Shown here piece by piece: positions 1,447 through 48,889 of a stretch of DNA of 52,515 nt; position 1 is the first letter of the stretch, and each line of letters starts with the position of its first letter. Source of the DNA: a virus; IMG/VR virus record IMGVR_UViG_3300045988_128440, one strand, 5' to 3'. The notes beneath the pieces were generated by a model, which made no database searches, had not been told where the DNA came from, and saw only the letters and a program-made list of their open reading frames with translations. Made by a program: the position numbers and the translations under genes.

Positions 1447-1746
1447 ATGGAATTTGGAGAACTACAAAATAAAGTATTATTAGTATTAGAAAAATATGAG
1501 GAAATAAGGAGTGATGATTTTAAGCTATATTTTCATGTATGTAGGTCAATAAATGAGAATGTAGCAATCATGGATAGATTTTCTTATGTAATGCTAAATC
1601 ATAAAGAATTAGGCTTTCCATCTTTTGAAAGCGTGACACGTTGTAGAAGAAAGGTGTTTGAGTTATACCCTAATTTAAAGCCTGAAAAAGTAACAAAATT
1701 TAGAAAGGAAAAAGAAGAAGAATTTAAGGAGTATGCAAAATCATGA
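1447..1746 (+). CDS. hypothetical protein
   Basis: 99-aa ORF with RBS GTGAGG upstream; its stop overlaps the next start (ATGA). Confidence 0.75.
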   Translation: MEFGELQNKVLLVLEKYEEIRSDDFKLYFHVCRSINENVAIMDRFSYVMLNHKELGFPSFESVTRCRRKVFELYPNLKPEKVTKFRKEKEEEFKEYAKS

Positions 1747-2884
1747 ATGATAACATAAAAAAATTTAACCCATTAAATGTAAGTAGTAAATTTGCTATAT
1801 GTGGTTTACCAATTAGGATTGACTCATATAAAACGTGTTCGTTTGGTTGTAAATATTGTTTTGCCGAAAATAGAAAAATCATGGAGTATGAGAAAAAAAT
1901 CCAAGTAGCAAATATTAATCAAGTAAAGAATAAATTAAAAAAAGTGTTTGATGATAAAAAGGTTGACCAAACAAATTTTTTAGAAACTTTAATTGATAAT
2001 GGCATAACGTGGCATTGGGGGGGATGAGCGATCCGTTTCAACCATGCGAAAAGAAATTACAAATAACAAAGCAATTATTAGATATTACTAATAAATATGG
2101 TATTCATGTATTGTTTTCAACTAAAAGTAATACAACGTATGATTGCGATATTAGACCTGATTTACACACGTTCCAATTAAGTATTACAAATGTTGATGAT
2201 TTAAAAAACATTGAACCTAATGTACCAAGTATAGAAAGTAGATATAAATTTTATAGGGAGCTAAAAGACAAAGGCTTTAAAGTTGGAATAAGAATACAAC
2301 CATTTATACCTAATATATCAACATTAAAAATAGTTGAAATGTTTAAGGACGCTGATAACTTTACTTTAGAGGGTATAAAAATTGTTCCACAAAACAAAGA
2401 ATGTAAAGAGTTTATTTTAAAAGAAATGAATTTAGAAAAAGAAAACTTTACTCAAATGGGATTATTAAATTTAAAGCCTACAATTAGACTAGAAATGTAT
2501 AAACCATTTATAGAATATTTTGAAAAACATAATATACCATATTCAATAGCGGATAATGATTTACATTTTATAGGCACGAATAAATGTTGTTGTGGAGATA
2601 GATTAGTACACAAAAGCACATCGTTTAATAATACAGCAATGATTAAATGTTATGGAGAAGATTATGCAAAAGAACAGTTAGATGATGAATTGTTTGAGTG
2701 TGGTGTACGTGATTGTAAATGTAACCATCTATTCACTTCAAATAGACAAGAGGGTTGTATAAGCGTTCAAGATTTCTATGATAAAAGATTTTATAGAAAA
2801 TCAAGTCCATTTTCTCCAATGTTTCAATATAAATTAGAAAGTGAAAAGAAACAAATAGAACAAATAAGCATATTTGATGTTTAG
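1743..2884 (+). CDS. radical SAM protein (SplB/COG1533-like), reading frame broken by a -1 shift at a G7 run (2017-2023)
   Basis: CSFGCKYC (CxxxCxxC) lies in ORF 1743..2027. GGMSDPFQPCE, the conserved continuation, lies in ORF 2009..2884. One extra G, or a -1 slip, joins them as ..WHWGGMSDPFQP.. Confidence 0.7.
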
Positions 2885-2886
2885 TA

Positions 2887-2899
2887 TTCTAATAGTAAA
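2887..2899 (+). repeat. motif variant TTCTAATAGTAAA
   Basis: One mismatch; 3 nt after stop 2884 and upstream of promoter 2927. Confidence 0.7.
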
Positions 2900-2926
2900 T
2901 TTATTTTAAATATAGAAGCATATTAT

Positions 2927-2955
2927 TTGTATGTGTATCACATATATAGTATTAT
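2927..2955 (+). promoter_or_regulatory. SigA-type promoter TTGTAT-N17-TATTAT with spacer inverted repeat ATGTG-TAT-CACAT
   Basis: Hexamers at 2927-2932 and 2950-2955 with 17-nt spacing, about 40 nt upstream of ATG 2996. Confidence 0.55.
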
Positions 2956-2995
2956 AAATATGTAAGATAAATTCATTCAAAAAGGGGATAGCAAA

Positions 2996-3190
2996 ATGCT
3001 AACATCAAAACAATCTTTATCAAAAATCAAAAAATATTATAGGAACTCAAAATTTTATGAGTATGATGATATTATTGATTGGTACGTTGATAAAGATACA
3101 AAAACATCTTATTCATGGGAATTTGAATTACATGGTGAAAAGCATGAAATAAAATGTAATAAAGAGAATGGAAAAATTGAAGTCCTTTAG
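2996..3190 (+). CDS. hypothetical protein
   Basis: 64-aa ORF with RBS AAGGGG upstream; followed by a terminator. Confidence 0.7.
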   Translation: MLTSKQSLSKIKKYYRNSKFYEYDDIIDWYVDKDTKTSYSWEFELHGEKHEIKCNKENGKIEVL

Positions 3191-3203
3191 GGCTTCTTTT
3201 TTT
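3179..3203 (+). terminator. intrinsic terminator
   Basis: Stem gaagtcc/gggcttc (one G.U pair), loop ttta, then T7. Confidence 0.6.
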
Positions 3204-3205
3204 GC

Positions 3206-3218
3206 TTCAAATAGTAAA
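3206..3218 (+). repeat. TTCAAATAGTAAA motif copy (perfect)
   Basis: Directly after the terminator T-run; 33 nt before ATG 3252. Confidence 0.9.
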
Positions 3219-3251
3219 CTTCGTTTGATAAAATAAACATGGAGGTGTCAA

Positions 3252-3422
3252 ATGAAAGGTATAGATGAATTAGTAACAATAGATGATTATTACCAAGAAA
3301 TAAAAGAAGTTGAAAAGCAACTAAAAGAAACAAATTCAAATTATCGTAAAAACGATTTGATGAAGTATTTATTTTATTTAAGAAAAGAAGTAAAAGATTA
3401 TATCAAGTTTACAAATAAATAA
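3252..3422 (+). CDS. hypothetical protein (56 aa)
   Basis: ATG preceded by GGAGGTG. Translation MKGIDELVTIDDYYQEIKEVEKQLKE.. Below the track cutoff. Confidence 0.6.
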   Translation: MKGIDELVTIDDYYQEIKEVEKQLKETNSNYRKNDLMKYLFYLRKEVKDYIKFTNK

Positions 3423-3424
3423 TA

Positions 3425-4729
3425 TTGGAGTTGTTTTTATTGGAAATAGAAATTGTTAGTATTCATGATTTAATACCCTATGATAACAATGCAAAGGAAC
3501 ACCCAAAAGAGCAAATTGAACAAATAAAGGAGTCTATTATTAAATTTCATAATAATGACCCTATAGCGATTGATGAAAACAATGTAATTATAGAGGGGCA
3601 TGGAAGATATGAAGCTTTAAAAGAGTTAGGTTATGAGCAAGTTGAATGTATTAGGTTAGACCATTTAAATGACGATCAAAAGAAAGCATATAGACTTGTT
3701 CATAATAAACTCACAATGAATAGTGATTTTAATTTTGATTTATTAGAAGAAGAATTAAAGACTATTAACGATATAGATATGGGTTTCTTTGATTTTGATA
3801 TGTCTATGTTTGATGAAATTGAGGAAGAAATAAAAGAGGAAGCAAATAAAAAACTAACTGATGAATTTCTAATACCACCTACAAGCGTTTTTGATACAAG
3901 ACAAGGCTATTGGCAAGAAAGAAAAAGAGCATGGAAAGACATTGGTATATCTAGCGAAGTTGGACGAGATGAAGCTTTATTAGGAAGTGGTTTAAAACTA
4001 TTAGCCAATAAGTTAGGAAGTAAAACATTAACAGGAACAAGCATTTTTGACCCTGTATTATGTGAAATCATTTATAAATGGTTTAATGTTCATCAAGGAA
4101 ATATATTTGATTGCTTTGCTGGTGGAAGTGTAAGGGGTATTGTAGCCGAGAAACTAGGTTATAAATATACTGGAATTGATTTAAGAAAAGAGCAAGTAGA
4201 AGCAAATATATTAAATGCTAATGAATTGAATTTAAACCCTACTTGGATATGTGATGATAGTTTAAACGCTGATTTATACGTTGAAGATAATAGCGTTGAT
4301 TTATTGTTTAGCTGTCCTCCTTATGCTGATTTAGAAGTCTATAGTGATGATGAAAGAGATATATCCAATATGGACTATGAGCAATTTAAAGATGTTTATA
4401 AAAAGATTATTGATATAGCTTGTAGAAAAGTAAAAGATGATCGCTTTGCGGTATTTGTTGTTGGTGATGTAAGGGATAAAAAAGGTTATTATAGAAACTT
4501 TGTTGATTATACTAAAGAGTGTTTTAATAATAATGGTTTCATGACATACAACGAGATTATTTTATTAGAGCAATTAGGAACTATCCCAATGAGAGCAAGG
4601 CTAGTATTTAAAAAAAGAAAAGTAGCAAAGGCACATCAAAACATATTGATATTCTATAAAGGTGATATAAACAACATTCCTTGTAATTACAGTAATATAG
4701 AAGTAGGACAAATAGAAGATACTCAATAG
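3425..4729 (+). CDS. ParB-like nuclease domain fused to SAM-dependent DNA methyltransferase (SPPY type)
   Basis: N-terminus IHDLIPYDNNAKEHP..IIEGHGRYEA is ParB-N-like. The C-terminal half has DCFAGGS (motif I) and FSCPPYADLE (motif IV). The true start is probably TTG 3440, after GGAG. Confidence 0.8.
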   Translation: MELFLLEIEIVSIHDLIPYDNNAKEHPKEQIEQIKESIIKFHNNDPIAIDENNVIIEGHGRYEALKELGYEQVECIRLDHLNDDQKKAYRLVHNKLTMNSDFNFDLLEEELKTINDIDMGFFDFDMSMFDEIEEEIKEEANKKLTDEFLIPPTSVFDTRQGYWQERKRAWKDIGISSEVGRDEALLGSGLKLLANKLGSKTLTGTSIFDPVLCEIIYKWFNVHQGNIFDCFAGGSVRGIVAEKLGYKYTGIDLRKEQVEANILNANELNLNPTWICDDSLNADLYVEDNSVDLLFSCPPYADLEVYSDDERDISNMDYEQFKDVYKKIIDIACRKVKDDRFAVFVVGDVRDKKGYYRNFVDYTKECFNNNGFMTYNEIILLEQLGTIPMRARLVFKKRKVAKAHQNILIFYKGDINNIPCNYSNIEVGQIEDTQ

Positions 4730-4745
4730 AGTGTCTTTTTTTGTT

Positions 4746-4758
4746 TTCAAATAGTAAA
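4746..4758 (+). repeat. TTCAAATAGTAAA motif copy (perfect)
   Basis: After the T-run that follows stop 4729; immediately upstream of promoter 4767. Confidence 0.9.
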
Positions 4759-4766
4759 CAAAACAC

Positions 4767-4795
4767 TTGATTATATGTAATACATATATTATAAT
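4767..4795 (+). promoter_or_regulatory. SigA-type promoter TTGATT-N17-TATAAT carrying palindrome ATATGTA-A-TACATAT
   Basis: Hexamers at 4767-4772 and 4790-4795; palindrome at 4773-4787. Member of the reused promoter family. Confidence 0.65.
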
Positions 4796-4828
4796 AAGTA
4801 CATAAGATAAAGAAAGAGGTAAAACAAT

Positions 4829-5116
4829 ATGACAAATTTAGAAATAGTAGCAAATGAAGTTGTAACAAATAATTTATTAACGGAAGAACAAGTTGAAGAA
4901 ATGATAATCAAATTTGGAGCATTACCATATAAAACATATCAAGAATGGAAATATAGTGGTTATCAAGTTAAAAAAGGCTCTAAAGCAATCATTAAAACAA
5001 AACTTTGGAAAAAGGTTAAAGAAAAGAAAGAAAAAGAAGATGAAGAACAAACAAGTAAATTCATTCTAGTAAGTGCTTCATTGTTTGGAGTAGATCAAGT
5101 AGAAAAAATAGCATAG
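4829..5116 (+). CDS. hypothetical protein, possible ArdC-N-like ssDNA-binding domain
   Basis: 95 aa with RBS AAGAGG. YQEWKYSGYQVKKGSKAI resembles the ArdC/antirestriction N-terminal domain motif (weak, by eye). Confidence 0.4.
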   Translation: MTNLEIVANEVVTNNLLTEEQVEEMIIKFGALPYKTYQEWKYSGYQVKKGSKAIIKTKLWKKVKEKKEKEDEEQTSKFILVSASLFGVDQVEKIA

Positions 5117-5136
5117 GGGATTTATTCCCCTAGTGC

Positions 5137-5149
5137 TTCAAATAATAAA
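5137..5149 (+). repeat. motif variant TTCAAATAATAAA
   Basis: One mismatch; follows hairpin gggga-tttat-tcccc; 21 nt before ATG 5171. Confidence 0.7.
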
Positions 5150-5170
5150 TATTAAAGGAGATAGGAAAAC

Positions 5171-5341
5171 ATGAAAACAATCATTAAATTAAAAGGCAAA
5201 AATATTTCAAAGAAAAAAGCGATTGAATTATTCGGTAAAGAAAGAATTGATAATAGAATTAAAGAAGCAAAAGAAAGCTTCATAAATGACCCATACGAAT
5301 TAAATTCATGGATGGACGGAATGGAAATAGAATTCAAATAA
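5171..5341 (+). CDS. hypothetical protein (56 aa)
   Basis: RBS AAAGGAGA. Translation MKTIIKLKGKNISKKKAIELFGKERID..; followed by a terminator. Confidence 0.6.
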   Translation: MKTIIKLKGKNISKKKAIELFGKERIDNRIKEAKESFINDPYELNSWMDGMEIEFK

Positions 5342-5357
5342 TTAGATACAGTTAAAT

Positions 5358-5386
5358 GAGAACTCTTAATTGGGTTCTCTTTTTTG
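5358..5386 (+). terminator. intrinsic terminator (gagaac/gttctc family)
   Basis: Stem gagaac(5358-5363)/gttctc(5374-5379) plus T6. Confidence 0.65.
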
Positions 5387-5417
5387 TTAAAAAAAGTAAA
5401 AAAGTTATTGTGAAATA

Positions 5418-5446
5418 TTGACATTTATATGTAATACATATATAAT
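5418..5446 (+). promoter_or_regulatory. consensus SigA-type promoter TTGACA-N17-TATAAT with palindromic spacer and A-rich UP region
   Basis: TTGACA at 5418-5423, TATAAT at 5441-5446, palindrome ATATGTAATACATAT at 5427-5441. Near-identical to 14509 and very similar to 6285 and 39405. Confidence 0.75.
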
Positions 5447-5479
5447 ATAAGTGTAATAAGAAAGAGAGAGGTACATATT

Positions 5480-5746
5480 ATGAGAACGGTAGAGGTAAAA
5501 TTAAACAATGCATGGAATGGAAAATTAGTAATGGAACCAATAAAAGTTGAAATTGAAAAAGGTTTATATCTTCAATTAAGTTATAAAACAAGTGATAATA
5601 CTTGGAATTTATCTTGTTTTGATTATAGAGCTAAATATCTAAATTTATATGATATTAAAGGTGATTGCAAAAGATTATCAACAATTAATAAAGCAATCAA
5701 AAATTCAGTTATTAATTGGGATGTAGAATTTATTTTAGTTAAATAA
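5480..5746 (+). CDS. hypothetical protein
   Basis: 88-aa ORF with RBS GAGAGAGG; first gene behind the consensus promoter. Confidence 0.75.
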   Translation: MRTVEVKLNNAWNGKLVMEPIKVEIEKGLYLQLSYKTSDNTWNLSCFDYRAKYLNLYDIKGDCKRLSTINKAIKNSVINWDVEFILVK

Positions 5747-5824
5747 AAAGAAAGAAGAGGGAGGACATCAAGAAATCATTAATCAATTAAAAGAATGATA
5801 TGCACCATTAAGTATTTAGAAACA

Positions 5825-5850
5825 AAGTGAAGCGATAACACTTAAAACAC
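5825..5850 (+). repeat. 26-nt conserved inter-ORF element (copy 1 of 2), hairpin AAGTG-N9-CACTT
   Basis: aagtgaagcgataacacttaaaacac matches 14769..14794 at 25 of 26 positions. Confidence 0.7.
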
Positions 5851-5870
5851 TTTAAGAAAGGATAATAAAT

Positions 5871-6257
5871 ATGTGGAAGAATATAAACATTTCAAAAAAT
5901 AATATAGATCATGAAACAGTTAAAGCGGTATTAATCAAAATGCCTAACAAAAGCGATTATAAAGGTTATTGCTTTTGGCACTCATCAAAGCTAGTTAGAA
6001 AGGGAAGAAACAAAAACAGTATATCTATAGGGTATACAAATGATTTCACTTTCAAGCTAATTAAATATGGTAATGGAAAATATAATAAATATGACATTAT
6101 CAAAGAAATAGAAATTAGCGTAGATGAATTTGAAAAAGCCTTTGAGGTGATGAATGAAAACATTAAAGAAAAGACTTTTAAGAATGAATATGAAACATAT
6201 AAACCTCAACATAAAGAAGTTGAAAAAGTAGAGATTGAGCAAGAATTATTAGATTAA
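5871..6257 (+). CDS. hypothetical conserved phage protein
   Basis: 128-aa ORF with RBS AAGGA upstream. Confidence 0.75.
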   Translation: MWKNINISKNNIDHETVKAVLIKMPNKSDYKGYCFWHSSKLVRKGRNKNSISIGYTNDFTFKLIKYGNGKYNKYDIIKEIEISVDEFEKAFEVMNENIKEKTFKNEYETYKPQHKEVEKVEIEQELLD

Positions 6258-6284
6258 AAAAATAAAAAATATTATTGGAAAATA

Positions 6285-6313
6285 TTGACTTTTCTATGTA
6301 ATACATATATAAT
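6285..6313 (+). promoter_or_regulatory. SigA-type promoter TTGACT-N17-TATAAT (reused promoter family)
   Basis: Hexamers at 6285-6290 and 6308-6313; spacer contains tatgtaatacatat. Confidence 0.7.
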
Positions 6314-6363
6314 ATAAACGTAATAGGAAGGGGGAACTCAAAGGAGTTCATAGGAATAAGAAA

Positions 6364-6681
6364 ATGTTAAAAATTAAAAAAGTATGGGTAGCGGATAATG
6401 GAGATATTTTTTTAGAAAGGGAAGTTGATTATAGAAATTACTCTTTAAAAGAAATTGAAGCATTAAAAAATCAAGCTGTAGAAATGCTTGATCGTGGAGA
6501 ATTTGAAAATTGTCATTATGTAAATGATGGGAAAATTAAACATGGTTCTTATTATACTAACGATAATGAATTTATAGGTAATGAACAAATTCACGTTTTA
6601 ACAAAATATGATACTCGTCAAGAAAAGATGTATCTAAATTATAAAGGGAATTTAAAGCCTTTATGGGATACAGCAAATTAA
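6364..6681 (+). CDS. hypothetical protein
   Basis: 105-aa ORF; its 5' leader carries hairpin 6334-6349. Confidence 0.75.
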   Translation: MLKIKKVWVADNGDIFLEREVDYRNYSLKEIEALKNQAVEMLDRGEFENCHYVNDGKIKHGSYYTNDNEFIGNEQIHVLTKYDTRQEKMYLNYKGNLKPLWDTAN

Positions 6682-6779
6682 AAAACCAGCAATTAGCCTT
6701 TGATAAATTATCAAGGTTAAAAGTTGGAGCGTTATTTATATTGAAATATTTTACCTATACCAATATAATATATATATGA
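6663..6779 (+). pseudogene. orphan copy A of the SNF2-like helicase 5' end (MGYSKLKNQQLAFDKLSRLKVGALF..)
   Basis: The 38-codon ORF has residues NQQLAFDKLSRLKVGALF that parallel NQQLAFEKLSKLKVGALF at 7391-7444. It runs into the homing-endonuclease promoter and stops at 6777-6779. Confidence 0.55.
6741..6769 (+). promoter_or_regulatory. promoter TTGAAA-N17-TATAAT for the homing endonuclease gene
   Basis: Hexamers at 6741-6746 and 6764-6769; RBS GAGAGGTGG precedes ATG 6793. Confidence 0.55.
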
Positions 6780-6792
6780 GAGGTGGTAAAAT

Positions 6793-7383
6793 ATGGAAAT
6801 ATGGAAAGATATAAAAGGCTATGAGGGTTTATATCAAGTTAGTAATTTTGGAAGAGTTAAAAGTTTAGCAAGAACGAATGTAAAAGGGAAAGGAAATTAC
6901 TATAGAAAAGAAAAAATCAAAAAACAATATAAGACCAAACATAGTTCAAACAAAACATCTTATTTTCACGTATCATTATCAAAAAATGGAATTATAAAAA
7001 GATACAGTGTTCATAGATTAGTTGCTATTGCTTTTATACCAAACAAGGAAAATAAAGAATATGTAAATCATAAAAATGAAAATGGTTTAGATAATAGAGT
7101 TGAAAATTTAGAATGGGTATCAAATAGTGAAAATCAATTATATTCATTATATGTAACTAAAAGCAATAAAAATACTATTCCTGTAATTGCTAAAGATAAA
7201 AACACTTTAGAGCCTATAAAGGAATTTGAAAGTATAGCTTTAGCTTCTAAATGGCTAATAGAAAGTAAAAAGACAAAAGATAAATATTGTAATCGTGGCA
7301 TTTCTAAATGTTGCAAACATAAAATACCAAGTTATATGGGTTATATATGGAGATGTAAAGAAGAGGTGAAAAACAATGTTTAA
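6793..7383 (+). CDS. HNH homing endonuclease (NUMOD4 + HNH_3 type)
   Basis: MEIWKDIKGYEGLYQVSNFGRVKS (NUMOD4-like); VNHKNENGLDNRVENLEWVSNSEN (HNH); C-terminal GYIWRC. Confidence 0.85.
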   Translation: MEIWKDIKGYEGLYQVSNFGRVKSLARTNVKGKGNYYRKEKIKKQYKTKHSSNKTSYFHVSLSKNGIIKRYSVHRLVAIAFIPNKENKEYVNHKNENGLDNRVENLEWVSNSENQLYSLYVTKSNKNTIPVIAKDKNTLEPIKEFESIALASKWLIESKKTKDKYCNRGISKCCKHKIPSYMGYIWRCKEEVKNNV

Positions 7384-8588
7384 TACTAAAAATCAACAAT
7401 TAGCATTTGAAAAATTATCTAAATTAAAGGTAGGTGCATTGTTCCTTTGAAATGGGAACAGGCAAAACCAAAGTAGCATTAGATTTAATCAATTCTAAAT
7501 CAAATAAAATTGATTATATTCTTTGGATATGTCCGTTCTCTATTAAGAACGAAATTATAAAGGAGCGTGATAAATGGTATCCAGCAATGAAAATAGATGT
7601 TGTAGGATGTGAAACAATAGGCTCTAGTGATAGAACTTATTTAGAAATCTTGAAAAAGGTTGCTACAAGCAAAACATTTATAGTTGTTGATGAAAGCCTG
7701 AAAATAAAAAATATCAATGCAAAGCGTACAAGAAGAATAATAGAATTTGGTGGATATGCTCAATATAAGTTGATATTGAACGGAACACCAATAACAAAGA
7801 ATGTTATTGATCTATGGGCGCAAATGGAATTTTTAAGTCCTAAAATATTGAAAATGTCTTTTAATCAATTCAAAAATACTTATTGTGAGTATTACATAAG
7901 AGGAAGATTGAAAGGCATGGTTAAGAAGCAACACAACATAGAACATTTAATATCATTAATAGAGCCTTATATCTTTGATTGTGATTTAGATATAGAAGCA
8001 AAGAAAATGTATTATAACTATTTCTATGATGTTGATATGTTTCAATATTCAAGCCTTAAAAATGAATTGTTAGAGTGCATAACAAATATAGATTTCTTTG
8101 TATTAACAACAAAGCTACAACAATTCTATACAACGTATAAAGAAGAAATGCTAAAAGAGTTGTTAGGACAAATAAACGATCAAGTTATTATATTTGTTAA
8201 ATATCTTGATAGCATACCAGCAGGAGCAAATAAAATTGTAGGAGATATGAACACAAAGGAAAGAAAACAAGTGATAGATAAATTTGAAAGAGGTGATTTT
8301 AAAGAGTTATATATCACTTATGGTTGTGGTTCATATGGTTTAAATCTTCAATTTTGTAGAAATATTATATTTGCTGAACATTGCTTTGATTATTCCCAAA
8401 GAATACAAGCTGAAGCAAGAATATATAGAATAGGTCAAAATTATGATGTTAATTATTATAACTTGTGGTGCAATGTTGGGTTAGAAAAAATGATACAAAG
8501 TTCATTAAATAAGAAATCAAACTTATTAAATGAAATAAAAAAAGAGATAGATAAGAAAGGAGAAAACAATTTAAAGAAATTGTTGTAA
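7376..8588 (+). CDS. SNF2/DEAD-like helicase; 5' segment (7376-7447) is out of frame by +1 with the body (7449-8588)
   Basis: MFNTKNQQLAFEKLSKLKVGALFL then TGA. Skipping t7448 gives ..GALFLEMGTGKT (Walker A), DESL, LNGTP and a C-terminal helicase domain. The track ORF 7434..8588 lacks a normal N-terminus. Confidence 0.7.
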
Positions 8589-8594
8589 TGATTT

Positions 8595-9248
8595 ATGAAT
8601 GAAACATTAAAAAAAGAACTTGAAAGGATTGATCAATTACCTATTGAAGATAAGGTTAAAGAAATCAATGAATTAAAGAAAGGAATTAAAAAGATTAGTC
8701 CGTTTGTAAAAGAGCCTGTTGATTGTGTTATTTGGGTTAAAAGTGATGAAGTAGTAGCAAATGAATATAACCCTAACCATGTAGCACCTCCTGAAATGGA
8801 ATTGTTGCATACATCAATTAAAGAAGATGGATATACACAACCTATAGTAGTTTATCAACATGACGGAAAATATGAAGTTGTTGATGGTTTCCATAGAAAC
8901 AGGGTTGGTAAGGAATACAAAGATATTAATGAAAGAATTAAAGGTTATTTGCCAGTTGTAGTTATTAATGAAGATGTAGCTGACAAGGGGCAAAGAATAG
9001 CAAGTACAATTAGACACAATAGAGCAAGAGGAAAACACCAAGTAGAAGCAATGAGCGACATTGTTCTTGATTTAAGAAAGAGAAATTGGAGCAATGAAAA
9101 AATAGCTAAAAAATTAGGTATGGACGCTGACGAAGTTTTAAGACTAGCACAAATTACAGGACTTGCCGAAATGTTTGCGGATAAAGATTTTAATGAAGCT
9201 TGGGAATGTGATTTAGAGGAAGAAGAGTTAATAAATGAAGATGAATAG
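8595..9248 (+). CDS. ParB/Srx-fold protein, IbrB-like
   Basis: ANEYNPNHVAPPEMELLHTSIKEDGYTQPIVV..VVDGFHRNRV plus a C-terminal HTH-like segment IAKKLGMDADEVLRL. Confidence 0.7.
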   Translation: MNETLKKELERIDQLPIEDKVKEINELKKGIKKISPFVKEPVDCVIWVKSDEVVANEYNPNHVAPPEMELLHTSIKEDGYTQPIVVYQHDGKYEVVDGFHRNRVGKEYKDINERIKGYLPVVVINEDVADKGQRIASTIRHNRARGKHQVEAMSDIVLDLRKRNWSNEKIAKKLGMDADEVLRLAQITGLAEMFADKDFNEAWECDLEEEELINEDE

Positions 9249-9627
9249 AATATATCACCCATATTGGTTATGGGAGGACTATTTGCATAGAATGTATGAA
9301 ACACCATTGAAAAGTAAAATAAATGGTATTGATGAAGAAGAAAGACTATTGAAAGTTGTTGAGTGTTTAGGTAATGAAAAGACTTGTTATAAATATATGA
9401 AATTGGTTATTGATCAATGGAAATATGCTTGTGAATATAGATTAACTAATAAATCTTTGAATAGGATAGCATGGCTTGGTCAATGTGCTTGTTGTTTGTA
9501 TGGTGGAATAAAGCAAGATGAAACTAAAAAAGCATGGCATTTATTAAGTGAAGAACAACAACAAAAAGCTAATGAAATAGCAAGAAAATTAATTGAAGAA
9601 TGGGAGGTTGAACACTTTGGACAATAG
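9235..9627 (+). CDS. hypothetical Cys-rich protein between the ParB-like and PP-loop genes
   Basis: 130-aa ORF overlapping both neighbours; contains NRIAWLGQCACCLYGG. Confidence 0.7.
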   Translation: MKMNRIYHPYWLWEDYLHRMYETPLKSKINGIDEEERLLKVVECLGNEKTCYKYMKLVIDQWKYACEYRLTNKSLNRIAWLGQCACCLYGGIKQDETKKAWHLLSEEQQQKANEIARKLIEEWEVEHFGQ

Positions 9628-10843
9628 AAGATATTTAGGTATTGATGTATTAACAGCTTCAAAAGAAAGAATTAAATGGGCATTTGATAATTTTGAAAAG
9701 ATATGTATTTCCTTTAGTGGGGGAAAAGATAGTACAGTAATGACACACCTAGTCATGGAAGAAGCAAAAAAAAGAAATAGAAAGGTAGCGTTGCTATTTA
9801 TTGATTGGGAAATCCAATATAAATTAACTATTGAACACGTACAACATATCTATGATATGTATAAAGATTATATTATTCCTTATTGGGTAGCATTACCGCT
9901 ATTAACCGATAATGCTTGTAGTATGTATGAGCCTGAATGGATTTCATGGGATAAAGCAAAAGAAAATCTATGGACTAGAAAACCACCTAAAATAGCAATT
10001 ACTGATGAAAACTATTTCCCATTTTACTATTATAAAATCACGTTTGAGGAATTTGTTCCATTGTTTGGTGAATGGTATGGAGAGGGAAAAAGTACAGCTT
10101 GTTTTGTAGGAATTAGAACAAGAGAAAGTTTAAACCGATATAGAGCATTAACAAACAAAAAGAAAAACAAGTATAAAGATAAAATGTTTACTACTTGTGT
10201 AACTGATAATGTTTATAATGTCTATCCTATCTATGATTGGAGCGCTGAAGATGATTGGAAATACTTTGGAAAGACAAAGAAACCATATAATAAATTGTAT
10301 GATCGTTTCTTTCAAGCTGGATTAACATTACATCAAATGAGAGTTGATGAACCATTTGGAGATACAACAAGAAGAAGTTTATGGCTATACCAAATTATTG
10401 AGCCTGAAACATGGGGAAAGATGGTATTAAGAGTTAATGGAGCAAATAGCGGTAGCTTGTATTCAAGAGATAATGGAAACATTTTAGGAAATAGAAGTAT
10501 TACATTGCCAAAAGGTCATACATGGCAAAGTTTCTCTAATTTCTTATTAGATACAATGCCAAAGAAAACAGCGGAACACTATAAAACAAAAATAGCTGTT
10601 TATATTAAATGGTATATGAATAGAGGCTATGTTGATGGAATACCTGATGAAGTAGACAAACAAATGGAAAAACAAAATGATGTACCATCATGGAGAAGAA
10701 TATGCCAAACGTTATTAAGAAATGATTATTGGTGTAAAGGTCTTGGATTTAGTCCAACAAAACAAAGTGCCTATAATCAATATTTAGAACGAATGAAGAA
10801 AAAAAGAAAAGAATGGGATATATATGGAGATGTAGAAGAATGA
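9593..10843 (+). CDS. PAPS-reductase-family PP-loop ATPase, IbrA/DndC-like
   Basis: ISFSGGKDSTVM PP-loop motif plus a long C-terminal extension. The likely start is TTG 9617, after GGGAGG. TGA is followed directly by TAA. Confidence 0.75.
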   Translation: MKNGRLNTLDNRRYLGIDVLTASKERIKWAFDNFEKICISFSGGKDSTVMTHLVMEEAKKRNRKVALLFIDWEIQYKLTIEHVQHIYDMYKDYIIPYWVALPLLTDNACSMYEPEWISWDKAKENLWTRKPPKIAITDENYFPFYYYKITFEEFVPLFGEWYGEGKSTACFVGIRTRESLNRYRALTNKKKNKYKDKMFTTCVTDNVYNVYPIYDWSAEDDWKYFGKTKKPYNKLYDRFFQAGLTLHQMRVDEPFGDTTRRSLWLYQIIEPETWGKMVLRVNGANSGSLYSRDNGNILGNRSITLPKGHTWQSFSNFLLDTMPKKTAEHYKTKIAVYIKWYMNRGYVDGIPDEVDKQMEKQNDVPSWRRICQTLLRNDYWCKGLGFSPTKQSAYNQYLERMKKKRKEWDIYGDVEE

Positions 10844-11238
10844 TAAAAATAATGAGTGAAAAAGAATATAATTTCTTCTTTCTAATGGGGAAATTCTTTG
10901 CAAATAGAAAATTTATAAAAGAAATGGATTGTCAACTTTATAGCAATGAAGATATGTTATGGTATATCTATTTCAATAAAGAGGGTAAAATTTGTGGCTT
11001 TGCTTCATTAGAAGATAATGAAAAATATTCTATGTTAGATAACTTTCTAGTGCTAGAAGAATATAGAAATAAAGGTATAGGCAAAGAAATTTTAGATCAT
11101 ATCGTTAATGATGTAATTGAAAAAGATATTAGATTAATTTCAAGAAATCCAATAGCAATTAAAATGTTTAAAGAGCGTGGTTTTGAGATTACAGGACATA
11201 ACGGAAGATATGAAAAGATGATAAAGAAGATTAAATAA
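10840..11238 (+). CDS. GNAT-family N-acetyltransferase
   Basis: LVLEEYRNKGIGKEILDHIV (acetyl-CoA motif A-like). ATGA overlaps the upstream stop. The track ORF start at 10813 is probably too early. Confidence 0.7.
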   Translation: MIKIMSEKEYNFFFLMGKFFANRKFIKEMDCQLYSNEDMLWYIYFNKEGKICGFASLEDNEKYSMLDNFLVLEEYRNKGIGKEILDHIVNDVIEKDIRLISRNPIAIKMFKERGFEITGHNGRYEKMIKKIK

Positions 11239-12888: not shown

Positions 12889-13134
12889 ATGAAACAAACA
12901 TATAGTATTTTACAAAGAGAAGTAAATAAAAGTACAGGTCAAATAGCTGTTAGAGTGTGCAAAAAAGGTACACAAGATTTTATTAGCGAAAGCTTAAATT
13001 ATTGCAAGTTAAGAAGTATCTTCAATGAAGAATTAACTTATTATCTTGTAAAGCAAGAAAATGAGAAAGAAGCTATTAAGAAATTAAAAAATAGAGTTAT
13101 TAAGAAAGATGATCTATACGTTGAGATTAGATAA
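12889..13134 (+). CDS. hypothetical protein
   Basis: ATG after ATGGAGAG. The N-terminal 22 codons of the track ORF overlap the previous small gene. Confidence 0.65.
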   Translation: MKQTYSILQREVNKSTGQIAVRVCKKGTQDFISESLNYCKLRSIFNEELTYYLVKQENEKEAIKKLKNRVIKKDDLYVEIR

Positions 13135-13305: not shown

Positions 13306-13485
13306 ATGGAACGTATAGAGGAAATAGAAAGTGCTATCAATCTAATTAATACAATATTAAGAAGTAGTAATTTGACATTAACAGTTAAAGAACGCAAAGG
13401 AAAACACTTTCCTGTAATTGTTGATGAAATCAATAAAAAAGAATATGTAATTATCAAAAAAGAGGAAAAGAACAATGGAAATTAA
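13306..13485 (+). CDS. hypothetical protein (59 aa)
   Basis: ATG after TAGGAGAA. Translation MERIEEIESAINLINT.. Confidence 0.6.
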   Translation: MERIEEIESAINLINTILRSSNLTLTVKERKGKHFPVIVDEINKKEYVIIKKEEKNNGN

Positions 13486-13975
13486 AGAACAATTAACACA
13501 AATGTTTTTAATGCAAGAAACATTAAATCAAAATATTTTAAAAGAGTTCGGTCAAGATAGCATGACCAAAGAAAAATTACAGTTAGCTATTATTGACGAA
13601 TTAGGAGAACTAACACATGAATTAAAAGGTAATTGGTGCTGGTGGAAGAAAACACAAAAGCCTGTTGATAGAAAGCGTGTATTAGAAGAATTAGTAGACG
13701 TTTATCACTTTGTTATGATATGGGAAATGTTTAAACGTGTCGAATATAAAATTGAATATATTTTAAAGGCATACGCAATTGAAATATTAATGTTTGGTAA
13801 AAACGTAGAAAATGAAACGTTAGATTATATCATTTGTAGAATGGAACTAGATAAGCATAAATTAGATTGGTTGTTGAAACTAACCGAACAATTAGGTTTC
13901 TCATTTGATGAAGTATATCAAGAATATCTAAATAAGAATAAAATCAATTATGAAAGGCTAAAAAATGGATATTAA
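13475..13975 (+). CDS. all-alpha NTP pyrophosphatase, dimeric dUTPase (dUTPase_2)/MazG-like
   Basis: FLMQETLNQNI..IIDELGELTHELKGNWCWWKK..LEELVDVYHFVM matches the dimeric dUTPase pattern by eye. Confidence 0.5.
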   Translation: MEIKEQLTQMFLMQETLNQNILKEFGQDSMTKEKLQLAIIDELGELTHELKGNWCWWKKTQKPVDRKRVLEELVDVYHFVMIWEMFKRVEYKIEYILKAYAIEILMFGKNVENETLDYIICRMELDKHKLDWLLKLTEQLGFSFDEVYQEYLNKNKINYERLKNGY

Positions 13976-42790: not shown

Positions 42791-44647
42791 TTATTCAGTT
42801 TCATCAATTAGTATCTTTAAATGAGGTGTAAGTGTGAATTTATCTATAGCTTCCTTGTTCCATCTTCCACCCTCATTTTTTTCATATTCCACTTTTATGA
42901 AAATATCCTTTAATAAATCGTTCTTTTCTTGTATACTTAACTTGTCATATTGTTTTAGGCAATCCGCTATTATAGGGATTGCTTTTTTATATCTAATAAT
43001 CTTATCTTGGTTAGTATCTTTTAAAATTTCTTCCTTTGTTTTTTCTATCTCTTTTAATTCGTTTTCTATATCGTTTTTATCCTCAATATATTCATTATAA
43101 GTAAATTCTTCTCTATTGTATGATCGTCTTAAATTCTTCAATTCTTTCTTTAAATCCTCAATTTGCTTTTCAATTTTATTTAATGTTTTAGCGTTGCTTT
43201 TAGCTTCTTTGATTATTTCTTGCTCATAGTTATCTACATAGTATCTAAAATCATTTAGTTGTATTTCTAATGCCTGTAATAATCTTTTTTCTACAAGTTG
43301 CAACTCACTAGAAACATTGTCACAAAACGGAGTTAAACATATCAAGCTATCATTTTGTTTAACTTTCTTGTTATAGGTGGTTATAATCTTATCCCATTTG
43401 CTGTCTTTGATTTCAAGCACTTCTTTTAATTGATACCAATGATTAGCAAGGTTTTTCCCATCATAGAATTTATCAATGTTAGTAGGAAACCACCCTTTAA
43501 CTGTATCTCTTGATATATTCATTTTTTTAGCTATTTGAGATAAAGAAAGATTAGATTTCTCTTTTGAACTTCTCATAAAGTCTAATAGTTCTTGTTTATC
43601 ATACTTATATTTTCTAAAACCATTTTTTAAATGCTTTTCGTTGTATGGTCTCCTTATCATATGCCTACCGCATTTCTTACAAAAGACAACACCAGCTAAA
43701 GGATTAGAAGCGTTTTTATTTCCACCTAATTTAGATGATGGGTGAGATTTTAATATCTCTTGTACGTTTTTAAATTCTTCTTCACTTATTAATGCTTTAT
43801 GCTTTCCTTTGTAGACATAGTATTTATCATTTAGCTTTCTTTTTTTGACAACCTCACCATTAATAATCTCTTCAACTGTTTTAAACTTTTCCCATGTGTT
43901 ATAACCACAATAAACCTCGGATGTAACTATATTTCTAACCATAGCAGGTGTCCAATATTCATTCTTTCTAGCCTTGTATTTGTACTTATTTAAATGGTTT
44001 GCTAGATTGCTAGTACCAACACCCTCTAAAAGCATTTCAAACATTAAAATAACTGTTTGTGACTCTTCCTCATGAGGTTCTAATATAAAGCGATCTTGTT
44101 CATCATGTAATTGCTTTCTTTTATATCCAAAAGGTGCTGAACTCCCTATGTAATAACCGTCTCTAACCGATTTATGCCTACCTCTATTCATAACATCTTT
44201 AGCATAGTTACGATATTCAGCGGATTGTATCATACGCATTTCAAGATACTTTTTATCCATAGGATTTTTTAGATCATAAGTTTGGTCAAGGGTTGCTATT
44301 AGAGTGTTAGTAACATCAAATATTTTTAAAACATCACCAGCACCATACATACCACTTCTACTTAAACGTTCAGGGTCAACACACCAAACACGTTTTATAT
44401 TTCCATTTTCTAATCTTCTTAAAAGTCGTAAAAAGTCAGGTCTATCTTTTATATTTTCTCCACCTGATACAATTTCCCTATATATATTTTCTTCTTTAAC
44501 AGGCTTTCCTGTGGTTTTTATACATAACTCTTGTAATTGTTCCTCATGCCTTTTTAATGTGATCTCTATTGGTTCTTTTATGTTGTCACTTCTTGATTTT
44601 CTTAATAGCATTAAATCTATTTCTTCAAATATTGGAATTTTGTTCAT
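42791..44647 (-). CDS. large serine recombinase (integrase)
   Basis: N-terminal resolvase motif LLRKSRSD..YREIVSGG, a recombinase domain, zinc ribbon CKKCGRHM and a long coiled-coil C-terminus; 618 aa. Confidence 0.9.
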   Translation of the reverse strand: MNKIPIFEEIDLMLLRKSRSDNIKEPIEITLKRHEEQLQELCIKTTGKPVKEENIYREIVSGGENIKDRPDFLRLLRRLENGNIKRVWCVDPERLSRSGMYGAGDVLKIFDVTNTLIATLDQTYDLKNPMDKKYLEMRMIQSAEYRNYAKDVMNRGRHKSVRDGYYIGSSAPFGYKRKQLHDEQDRFILEPHEEESQTVILMFEMLLEGVGTSNLANHLNKYKYKARKNEYWTPAMVRNIVTSEVYCGYNTWEKFKTVEEIINGEVVKKRKLNDKYYVYKGKHKALISEEEFKNVQEILKSHPSSKLGGNKNASNPLAGVVFCKKCGRHMIRRPYNEKHLKNGFRKYKYDKQELLDFMRSSKEKSNLSLSQIAKKMNISRDTVKGWFPTNIDKFYDGKNLANHWYQLKEVLEIKDSKWDKIITTYNKKVKQNDSLICLTPFCDNVSSELQLVEKRLLQALEIQLNDFRYYVDNYEQEIIKEAKSNAKTLNKIEKQIEDLKKELKNLRRSYNREEFTYNEYIEDKNDIENELKEIEKTKEEILKDTNQDKIIRYKKAIPIIADCLKQYDKLSIQEKNDLLKDIFIKVEYEKNEGGRWNKEAIDKFTLTPHLKILIDETE

Positions 44648-48029: not shown

Positions 48030-48441
48030 AAGACAAGAATTAGTAAATGATATTTTAGATATATATGATTATGTAGACCATTTAGAAAAAGAGGTTGAAC
48101 GTTTAAAACCTTATTCAATCAAGGAAGAAAAAGAAAATAGTGAAACATTAAACCATATTGATTATTTAATGATTAGTATAGGAAAACAAAAAACTTTAGA
48201 TAGGTGTTTATATAACTGGAGAGAAGTTAAAGCGAAGTATGATGAAGAAAATGATACTTATAACGTAACTTCATATAATAATTGGTTAAATGAAAAATTA
48301 AGACGTGATGAAATACCTGATAGTATTTCACTTGATGAATTTAGAGTTTATTTTAGAAAAGAATTACAAGAAATATATGAAAAAGAAAAATCAATAGCAT
48401 TAAATAAAGCTAAAGGCATTGAAAATGTGGAGGAAGAATAA
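48022..48441 (+). CDS. hypothetical protein
   Basis: 139-aa ORF. Confidence 0.7.
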   Translation: MIKRQELVNDILDIYDYVDHLEKEVERLKPYSIKEEKENSETLNHIDYLMISIGKQKTLDRCLYNWREVKAKYDEENDTYNVTSYNNWLNEKLRRDEIPDSISLDEFRVYFRKELQEIYEKEKSIALNKAKGIENVEEE

Positions 48442-48448
48442 AATAAAT

Positions 48449-48889
48449 ATGGATTATGAAGAATATATAAAGGAACATTTTCAATATGACAATCAAACAG
48501 GTTTACTTTCTAGGAATGATAGAAAAGGCGGTTTAGGGAGTATTGATAAAGATGGATATTTGATAATTAAAGTTAAAGGGAAACAATTTAAATATCATAG
48601 AGTTGTTTGGCTGTTATGTTATGGCCAATTTCCTAAAAAAGAACTAGATCATATTGATAGAAACAAACTAAATAATAGAATTGAAAATTTAAGAGAAGCT
48701 GATAGGCAATTACAAATTGAAAACCAAAAACCAATTATCAATAAAGATACCAAAGAACAACATATATATTTAGATAAATCAACTAAAGGATTAAAAGCAA
48801 GGTATGTTGTAAGGAAAGGGAATAAAGCTTATAGATTTAGAAATATTGAAGAAGCTAAAAAAATGAGGGATAAATTATGGAAGAAGTAA
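48449..48889 (+). CDS. HNH endonuclease (HNH_3 type)
   Basis: KYHRVVWLLCYGQFPKKELDHIDRNKLNNRIENLREA. Confidence 0.8.
   Translation: MDYEEYIKEHFQYDNQTGLLSRNDRKGGLGSIDKDGYLIIKVKGKQFKYHRVVWLLCYGQFPKKELDHIDRNKLNNRIENLREADRQLQIENQKPIINKDTKEQHIYLDKSTKGLKARYVVRKGNKAYRFRNIEEAKKMRDKLWKK

Follow-up and report, generated by a model that had tools for sequence, protein, structure and literature searches.

The window analysed here is a 52,515-nucleotide stretch of viral DNA (IMG/VR record IMGVR_UViG_3300045988_128440), and our subject is a region of 9.5 kb within it (positions 1743-11238), in which an original prediction, made from the letters alone, had recognised a single island of seven DNA-modification-type genes. 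As judged from sequence comparisons, the flagged region consists of three independently mobile units and is not one pathway. Unit 1 (1743-3206) is a radical-SAM cassette, putatively of the COG1533/PA0069-like (SplB-like) type. Unit 2 (3425-5116) combines a ParB-N-methyltransferase with an ArdC-N-like open reading frame (ORF). Unit 3 (5871-11238) is a conserved operon made of the o128, SNF2, IbrB, o130, IbrA and GNAT genes in this order, with an HNH insertion in front of SNF2, and is assigned by architecture, neighbourhood and homology to the IbrA/IbrB (YbdN/YbdM) family. All features of the flagged region described below are on the + strand. The explanation that we favour overall, and hold with even confidence, is that of three units, the third being an extended IbrAB module that would probably mark DNA or shield it.

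Division of the flagged region

The division into three units relies on the agreement between insertions, deletions and swaps seen in sibling contigs, the content of related loci, and terminator-like sites together with a promoter match. The siblings are five IMG/VR contigs (L001-L005), 95-99% identical to the window across the flagged region. The block 1747-3206, which holds the radical-SAM gene and a 64 amino acid (aa) ORF, is absent from all five, and all five keep the Ibr operon. The methyltransferase half of the ParB-methyltransferase is swapped in two of them (L001 and L004), the HNH block is absent from four, and positions 7998-9204 are lost in one. Related loci were collected with an IbrA profile (80 viral and 80 genomic), and annotated phage records were added, for ∼190 loci overall; counts reported below refer to a first set of 93 loci, to 171 loci once genomes were added, and, for co-occurrences, to 174 loci. 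Among the latter, a radical-SAM gene is found together with IbrA only in locus L062 and in the window's own frameshifted lineage (L177-L182), and the ParB-methyltransferase accompanies IbrA in 8 loci, 5 of which are siblings.

The signals between genes, all of them consensus matches only, fall at the same places. A terminator-like hairpin followed by a T-run closes the radical-SAM cassette at 3179-3196 (3179-3206 if taken up to the sibling indel boundary at ∼3206). A second one lies at the end of the methyltransferase (4714-4739), and a third (5358-5379) precedes a perfect sigma-70-type promoter-like site, TTGACA-17-TATAAT (12/12), at 5418-5446. This site is a candidate start for the transcription unit holding the Ibr module; downstream of it, the next terminator-like site on the + strand does not come before position 12955. 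The GC content is uniform across the flagged region (0.26-0.29), which means that the region is no compositional island.

All seven ORFs of the original prediction are real, and its domain calls were borne out by Pfam and PHROG, on weaker grounds for the radical SAM: profile searches detected ParB_N, PAPS_reduct, DUF3440, SNF2 and GNAT domains, but Pfam Radical_SAM gave no match to the window gene. What had to be abandoned is the grouping of the seven genes into one island and one pathway, since siblings exist without the radical-SAM cassette, and the ParB-methyltransferase sits in an exchangeable, signal-bounded unit of its own.

The IbrA/IbrB core and its partners

The part of the prediction concerning SNF2-IbrB-o130-IbrA-GNAT was confirmed: these genes form one conserved operon-like module, with overlaps or short gaps. 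The stop of SNF2 at 8588 is closely followed by the IbrB start at 8595, IbrB overlaps o130, o130 overlaps IbrA, and IbrA and GNAT share an ATGA. IbrA (9617-10843) is a PP-loop ATP pyrophosphatase of the PAPS-reductase family with a C-terminal DUF3440 domain. PAPS_reduct (PF01507, 65.9 bits) and DUF3440 (PF11922, 152.6 bits) both score above their gathering cutoffs, the SFSGGKDS motif is perfect, and the protein matches phrog_2302 (E 9e-93). The PAPS-reductase and PP-loop call therefore stands, but the start at 9593, that of the longest ORF, is probably not the true one; the most likely start is a TTG at 9617, preceded by GGGAGG, and gene callers give a protein of 408 aa. IbrB (8595-9248) has a ParB/Srx fold (ParB_N, 29.6 bits; phrog_2159, E 9e-75). 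The ParB-fold and PAPS-reductase-fold pairing that had been pointed out is that of IbrB and IbrA by direct homology: over 95% of its length, the window IbrA shares 51% identity with the annotated IbrA of Escherichia phage PhiR5_2, and it shares 44-45% with the S. thermophilus phage IbrA.

A survey of neighbourhoods, which the prediction had proposed, found IbrB beside IbrA in 92 of the first 93 loci, a count that became 163 of 171 with genomes added. IbrA and IbrB are the obligate core of the module. Among the first 93 loci, the sole one having IbrA without IbrB is sibling L004, where a 1.2-kb deletion (L004 9024-9633, corresponding to window 7388-9204) takes the C-terminal half of SNF2 and nearly all of IbrB.

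Across 169 IbrA sequences, the invariant positions are the PP-loop (S40-S47), D71, E73, R175, E178, S179, R182 and a YPxYDW motif. No cysteine is invariant in this set. The idea that the family is devoid of conserved cysteines was nevertheless rejected, as most members have four, which are merely not universal: cysteines 118, 252, 371 and 381 (numbering of 9593-10843) are all present in 110 of the 169 homologues. At these positions the window protein reads S, D, C and C, and the IbrA of Flavobacterium phages has no cysteine at any. This means that sulfur-relay chemistry is no trait of the family, and the four cysteines look like a dispensable metal site rather than a sulfur-relay or radical centre. 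IbrB is better conserved than IbrA (50-55% versus 36-44% identity to distant phage homologues). Its invariant motifs are NxYNPN, DGFHR and RHNRARGxH, and a C-terminal segment, LGMxxDExLRL, is conserved. The pattern suggests a conserved pocket for a nucleotide or small molecule, over a variable reader of DNA sequence. In the PDB, no solved IbrA or IbrB was found; the nearest structures are CysD and PAPS reductase for IbrA, on the PP-loop only, and ParB for IbrB.

Between the two core genes of the window lies o130 (9235-9627), from an all-alpha family without a Pfam entry. Homologues are present in 67 of the first 93 loci, every one immediately upstream of IbrA, and the IbrB-o130-IbrA linkage (92/93 and 67/93 loci) is far beyond chance. 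In 18 loci (15 viral, 3 genomic), o130 is the C-terminal domain of IbrB. It is a clade-specific third subunit, sometimes fused to IbrB. In a set of 5.8 billion proteins, at least 2,570 belong to this family (849 representatives at 50% identity), with no informative name among them. The predicted structure is an eight-helix bundle (pLDDT 94.8); compared with the PDB, the model had no structural neighbour (best E 0.7, TM 0.23), and its sole neighbour in a viral structure library was a member of its own family. As for the description of this ORF as Cys-rich, the ORF is real but its cysteine content is no family feature, C66 alone being commonly conserved. In 18 loci without o130 (for instance L010, 571-948), the place just before IbrA is taken by another family, of ∼132 aa and with no Pfam or PHROG match. 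It was considered as a divergent o130 and rejected (hhalign probability 0.1%).

The SNF2 gene (7434-8588; 378 aa from ATG 7452 according to gene callers) encodes a minimal SNF2-type ATPase/translocase, of a subfamily dedicated to IbrAB modules, with GTGKT and DESL motifs (PF00176, SNF2-rel_dom, 56.7 bits; PF00271, Helicase_C, 43.2 bits). It belongs to the module, as had been proposed: the 40 best tblastn matches in 50,697 phage records are all in phages carrying IbrA and IbrB, and adjoin the pair wherever checked. By its coordinates, SNF2 abuts IbrA in 9 distinct phages of Lactobacillus, Streptococcus, Listeria and Fusobacterium. In Flavobacterium phages the annotated order is SNF2-IbrB-IbrA, and whether searched with IbrA or with SNF2, the phage collection yields 90 Flavobacterium and 21 Streptococcus records. 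The SNF2/IbrA/IbrB trio is also found in genomes of Bacteroidia, Sphingobacteriales, Christensenella and Hathewaya. The small o128 protein (5871-6257, phrog_27058) is encoded directly upstream of SNF2 in five lineages (the window clade, L011, L013, L094 and L174), and all six genes of the window module recur in the Coproplasma locus L094.

The GNAT acyltransferase (10840-11238; 10813-11238 for the domain call) is of a subfamily specific to Ibr operons. It too was correctly placed in the module, as members of this subfamily turn up within the operon in 7 lineages and in four different slots (behind IbrA, or in the o130/IbrA, IbrA/IbrB or IbrB/o130 interval) and share a private N-terminal motif. 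We conclude that SNF2, with o128, and the dedicated GNAT are recurrent optional components of the module.

In the window, the 5′ end of SNF2 is interrupted. A remnant of the original 5′ end, 25 codons long (MGYSKLKNQQLAFDKLSRLKVGALF...), is left at 6663-6739, severed by an HNH cassette (6740-7387) whose ORF, with NUMOD4 and HNH_3 domains, is at 6793-7383, and which has a promoter-like site of its own at 6741-6769. A replacement 5′ end (MFNTKNQQLAFEKLSKLKVGALFL, then a stop) came in with the cassette at 7376-7450. In HNH-free siblings, the SNF2 5′ end reads directly into EMGTGKT. At CTT TGA A, a +1 frameshift heptamer of the prfB type, the replacement end is one base (+1) out of register with the SNF2 body. 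Sequencing error at this junction was ruled out, as 9 independent contigs share it unchanged. The Q-motif is kept in every SNF2 linked to IbrA and IbrB; in the window genome it is out of frame, and missing from the protein unless a +1 shift occurs. The SNF2-type helicase call thus holds for the SNF2-rel_dom and Helicase_C domains, but the N-terminal Q-motif was lost through the HNH cassette. No group I intron was detected at the insert in an Rfam scan, and the insert is therefore treated as a free-standing homing-endonuclease cassette.

The Ibr cassette moves about among unrelated sites of phage genomes. The window phage has it in the early replication/recombination operon, FCOV-F8 in the interval from terminase to portal, and Streptococcus, Lactobacillus and C. 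scindens phages downstream of their lysis genes. In FCOV-F8 (L176, 3211-6796), SNF2-IbrB-IbrA come with two small upstream ORFs, at an unusual site for an accessory insert. The Fusobacterium phage phiFN37 (L013) carries an IbrA-IbrB-o128-SNF2 set. About 3.5 kb downstream (L013 10763-13072), a module of the 7-deazaguanine type is made up of a second ParB-like gene next to genes for a queuine tRNA-ribosyltransferase-like protein and a queuosine-precursor transporter.

The two other units and the phage

The radical-SAM gene of unit 1, taken for a single gene in the original prediction, is split in two ORFs. The N-terminal piece (1743-2027, 94 aa) carries the CxxxCxxC motif CSFGCKYC and ends at a run of seven G (2017-2023). 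The C-terminal piece (GGMSDPFQP...; 2009-2884, from ATG 2024 according to gene callers) is shifted to the -1 frame with respect to the first, whose TGA overlaps the next ATG (ATGA). The radical-SAM call itself relies on the CSFGCKYC motif and on the match of the C-terminal piece to phrog_13321, profile matches being weak: the joined sequence scores 68.9 bits with the PA0069-type model NF033668, for a cutoff of 360, and is also below threshold for 'rSAM mobile pair B' (NCBIfam). The sole other copy found, that of L062, is intact (380 aa) with 96% aa identity, and the IbrA of L062 is just 55% identical to that of the window. Sequencing error was ruled out as the origin of the frameshift, as the exact 94-aa product and the 1-nt shift are identical in at least 24 independent contigs. 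Across the two halves of the gene, the frameshifted lineage differs by 43-47 synonymous versus 14-15 non-synonymous codons (∼3:1), and the site also fits a -1 slippery heptamer, G GGG GGA. Based on the conserved frameshift, the excess of synonymous changes, the ATGA overlap and the fit to the heptamer, the gene would be either a working split enzyme or a case of programmed recoding.

Unit 2 starts with a protein (3425-4729) made of a ParB-N domain and a beta-class N6/N4 DNA methyltransferase of the SPPY type (phrog_498, E 1e-131). Residues 6-151 match phrog_620 (ParB), the methyltransferase matches PF01555 (42.8 bits), and the arrangement, with ParB-N at the N-terminus and N6_N4_Mtase at the C-terminus, is the fusion architecture of phrog_498. 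In the siblings, the ParB-methyltransferase is always followed by the ArdC-N-like ORF, which the prediction did not mention (4829-5116, 95 aa; PF08401, 27.8 bits, above cutoff; phrog_7245, 'anti-restriction protein'). The N-terminal domain of ArdC is a single-stranded DNA-binding domain of anti-restriction factors. With this domain in 4829-5116, unit 2 looks like a common anti-restriction pair, and its role is probably anti-restriction. In sibling L001, the positions equivalent to window 3425-4729 (L001 4327-5967) are occupied by a stand-alone ParB-N, an ABC-type ATPase and a GNAT (phrog_11143). This makes a second grouping of a ParB-fold protein, an ATP-using enzyme and a GNAT within one phage lineage.

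The window as a whole has a GC content of ∼27-30%, and nearly all its genes are on the + strand. A DnaD-like replication organiser is encoded at 213-1226, upstream of the flagged region, and a MazG-like nucleoside triphosphate pyrophosphohydrolase at 13475-13975, downstream of the Ibr module. A large serine recombinase is encoded on the - strand (42791-44647). The recombination block at 46-52 kb has genes for a Sak-like annealase, SSB, NinB and RusA, and includes another HNH endonuclease gene (48419-48889). The phage is a temperate, siphovirus-like, low-GC gut phage, and the flagged region is part of an early block which is a mosaic of accessory units. A near-identity search against the 50,697 phage records returned no match to it, and a tRNA scan found zero tRNA genes. 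The phage is very common in metagenomes, with more than 100 near-identical IbrA proteins coming from contigs of 50-54 kb. The best 120 protein matches to the window IbrA are all at least 96% identical, and repeating the search with a profile gave one new protein only. The closest cellular IbrA, with 75% identity, is that of a Candidatus Coproplasma metagenome-assembled genome (L094).

Known systems and possible functions of the Ibr module

Closest to the window module are IbrA/IbrB of the E. coli ECOR-9 island and their K-12 paralogues YbdN/YbdM, which have the same PAPS_reduct and DUF3440 architecture in IbrA and an adjacent ParB-N partner; enterobacterial chromosomal IbrAB loci are retrieved by the same profile as the window module. 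The gene order differs (IbrB-o130-IbrA in the window, IbrA-IbrB in E. coli), the window has no LysR regulator, and its four extra dedicated genes (o128, SNF2, o130 and GNAT) are lacking in the E. coli loci.

A ParB superfamily protein is also paired with a PAPS-reductase-family PP-loop ATP pyrophosphatase in the DNA-linked systems of DndB/DndC, SspD and BrxP. DndC is defined by a three-Cys 4Fe-4S site and a Cys dyad (PMC10853773). Neither has a conserved counterpart in IbrA, and DUF3440 is specific to IbrA. With the DndC model TIGR03183, the window IbrA scores 34.5 bits versus a cutoff of 290.4, and the PADLOC DndC match covers residues 171-234 only. No DndA, DndD, DndE, SspA, SspB or SspC was found in 47 window ORFs scanned with Pfam, PHROG, NCBIfam or PADLOC, a scan that left the structural-gene half outside, nor in conserved neighbour clusters. 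In agreement with the prediction, which had seen no Dnd, Ssp or Dpd partner genes either, we judge from these comparisons that the module is not Dnd. ParB-like partners of DNA-modifying enzymes have been described for DndC (DndB) and for DpdA (DpdB), and the Dpd cluster includes a SNF2 helicase, DpdE (PMC12839542). The likeness is that a ParB-like NTPase aids a DNA-modifying enzyme with a SNF2 helicase in the cluster, and that the best PADLOC match of the window SNF2 is DpdE. This match, however, spans the generic helicase lobes only, the chemistry of the window module would be an adenylation whereas that of Dpd is a base exchange, and neither a DpdA transglycosylase nor preQ0 synthesis genes were found among the scanned ORFs.

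The only phage protein with a PAPS-reductase domain for which we found an experimental phenotype in the literature is p0018 of vibriophage 44E38.1, where this domain is fused to Dam, and which defeats Dnd (bioRxiv 10.1101/2021.05.05.442762). It lies in a variable anti-defence region. It is a single methylase fusion of the phrog_424 type, without DUF3440, IbrB, SNF2 or GNAT, whereas the window IbrA is of the phrog_2302 type, and its C-terminal half is DUF3440, with no methylase. For the GNAT, phage Mu Mom offers a precedent, as a GNAT-fold enzyme that covalently modifies DNA bases against restriction (PMC7261163). The analogy is one of fold and role, and Mom acts alone.

The general mechanism of PP-loop enzymes is to adenylate an oxygen of the substrate, with ATP giving AMP and pyrophosphate. 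That the PP-loop and active-site residues of IbrA are invariant argues for real adenylation chemistry, and the families of IbrB and of the SNF2 motor point to double-stranded DNA as the likely substrate or track. In the mechanism we propose, IbrB, as a nucleotide-binding protein of the ParB/Srx fold, would bring the complex to double-stranded DNA, and the SNF2 motor would move it along DNA or clear proteins from DNA. IbrA would split ATP into AMP and pyrophosphate and adenylate a DNA oxygen, that of a backbone phosphate or else of a base carbonyl. A nucleophile would then displace the adenylate, and GNAT, where present, could acylate the product. The likely outcome would be a non-methyl mark, protecting the DNA of phage or prophage against host nucleases or altering the reading of DNA. 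To a DNA mark or counter-defence in this broad sense we give a confidence that comes close to even. The narrower proposal, that the operon installs an undescribed covalent DNA modification, neither methyl nor phosphorothioate, by IbrA adenylation, exchange of the adenylate for a nucleophile and GNAT acylation, run by SNF2, appears doubtful, though not negligible. DNA hypermodification by the module, put forward in the original prediction, is thus something we infer.

Several points weigh against a DNA mark. Our literature search found no chemistry for IbrAB and no direct evidence of DNA modification by any IbrAB module, and no gene for a nucleophile donor (cysteine desulfurase, amidotransferase or pyridoxal phosphate enzyme) is linked to the module. 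The enterobacterial chromosomal pair is under a LysR repressor and beside metabolic genes, unlike a phage counter-defence. The AlphaFold model of IbrA, built from an alignment of 6 sequences, has a pLDDT of 39, and DUF3440 yields no clue to the substrate. SNF2, o130 and GNAT are each absent from many IbrAB loci, so that none is essential to the core reaction, and in genomes carrying the HNH cassette the SNF2 5′ end is out of frame, so that the helicase may be impaired there.

Of the other explanations, the one we take most seriously, while finding it unlikely, is a transcription or chromatin device leaving no covalent mark, in which IbrB would spread on DNA, SNF2 would strip silencers or recycle RNA polymerase, and IbrA would handle a nucleotide cofactor. 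Activation of prophage eib genes is the sole functional annotation of IbrAB (a SEED label), and in 2002 Sandt et al. reportedly found that IbrAB activate these genes. The E. coli ybdNM pair lies beside the H-NS-regulated LysR regulator YbdO/CitR and is repressed by it (PMC9068703), the best NCBIfam match of SNF2, at merely 57.7 bits, is 'pilus expression-regulating Snf2 helicase', and several temperate phages have the module in a moron position after the lysis genes. But the invariant active site of IbrA favours adenylation over regulation alone, the dedicated GNAT is hard to fit, and gene activation could itself follow from a DNA mark. That the module acts without any new mark, as a counter-defence against phosphorothioation-type immunity (Dnd, Ssp or BREX type 4), by mimicking the host DndC/SspD step or interfering with it, seems to us distinctly improbable. 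It would agree with the Dnd escape conferred by the vibriophage PAPS-reductase-Dam fusion, with the clustering of phage PAPS reductases in anti-defence hotspots (PMC13551039) and with the weak DndC and BrxP matches of IbrA. Yet the architecture differs (DUF3440, no methylase fusion, an obligatory IbrB partner), the set of four cysteines is incomplete in the window IbrA and absent from that of Flavobacterium phages, and the pair is spread over hosts that may or may not have Dnd.

The remaining three explanations have small probabilities. A single multi-step hypermodification pathway made of all seven genes, radical SAM and ParB-methyltransferase included, is very unlikely. The genes share one strand within 9.5 kb and have nucleic-acid-related folds, the ParB-methyltransferase comes directly after the Ibr operon in L014 and L015, the nearest non-sibling relatives, and L062 has both a radical SAM and an Ibr module; against these stand the five siblings whose Ibr operon is intact without the radical-SAM cassette, the terminator-like sites and consensus promoter that set the units apart, the exchangeable methyltransferase half and the few co-occurrences given above. 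An RNA substrate such as tRNA, with the PP-loop enzyme, the ATPase and GNAT remodelling host or phage tRNAs, has a slim chance of being right. Most characterised PP-loop nucleic-acid enzymes act on tRNA, TmcA joins a helicase-like ATPase to a GNAT, and IbrA has weak matches to the TilS N-domain and PP-loop; but ParB-fold partners and SNF2 translocases are proteins of double-stranded DNA, no RNA-binding domain was detected, and the phage has no tRNA genes. We give the faintest credence to a prophage-carried defence or superinfection exclusion serving the lysogen, for instance a modification-only or modification-plus-translocase immunity. The moron-like position in temperate phages would suit it, as would the presence of the module in bacterial chromosomes and the resemblance of SNF2 to the DpdE, ZorD and DrmD helicase domains. 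However, the module has no linked nuclease or other effector, PADLOC has no model that matches IbrA, IbrB or o130 as such, the module lies within an early replication/recombination operon in the window phage, and it is also carried by phages described as lytic, such as FCL-2, in which neither an integrase nor a repressor was found and no lysogeny was detected.

The impression of a seven-gene pathway is corrected, radical SAM and ParB-methyltransferase being separate accessory units. The IbrAB family itself is known; its extended composition, with o128, SNF2, o130 and GNAT, appears undescribed in the literature we found, and neither this literature nor the PDB gives a reaction, a substrate or a structure for IbrAB. 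The pair is widespread, in hundreds of phages, in many bacterial chromosomes and as YbdN/YbdM in E. coli K-12; in the phage collection searched, it occurs in 90 Flavobacterium, 60 Mycobacterium and 21 Streptococcus records. It now has defined dedicated partners that move with it as a cassette, which makes a system ready for expression work, and tractable carriers exist among S. thermophilus dairy phages, Flavobacterium phages and, with Gaia, mycobacteriophages. If there is no DNA mark, the module is still a widespread ATP-dependent machine. A DNA mark, if real, would amount to a new class of epigenetic protection in phages, with a bearing on phage therapy and on resistance to dairy phages, and a covalent mark would also account for the long-unexplained IbrAB/YbdNM pairs of enterobacteria and phages.

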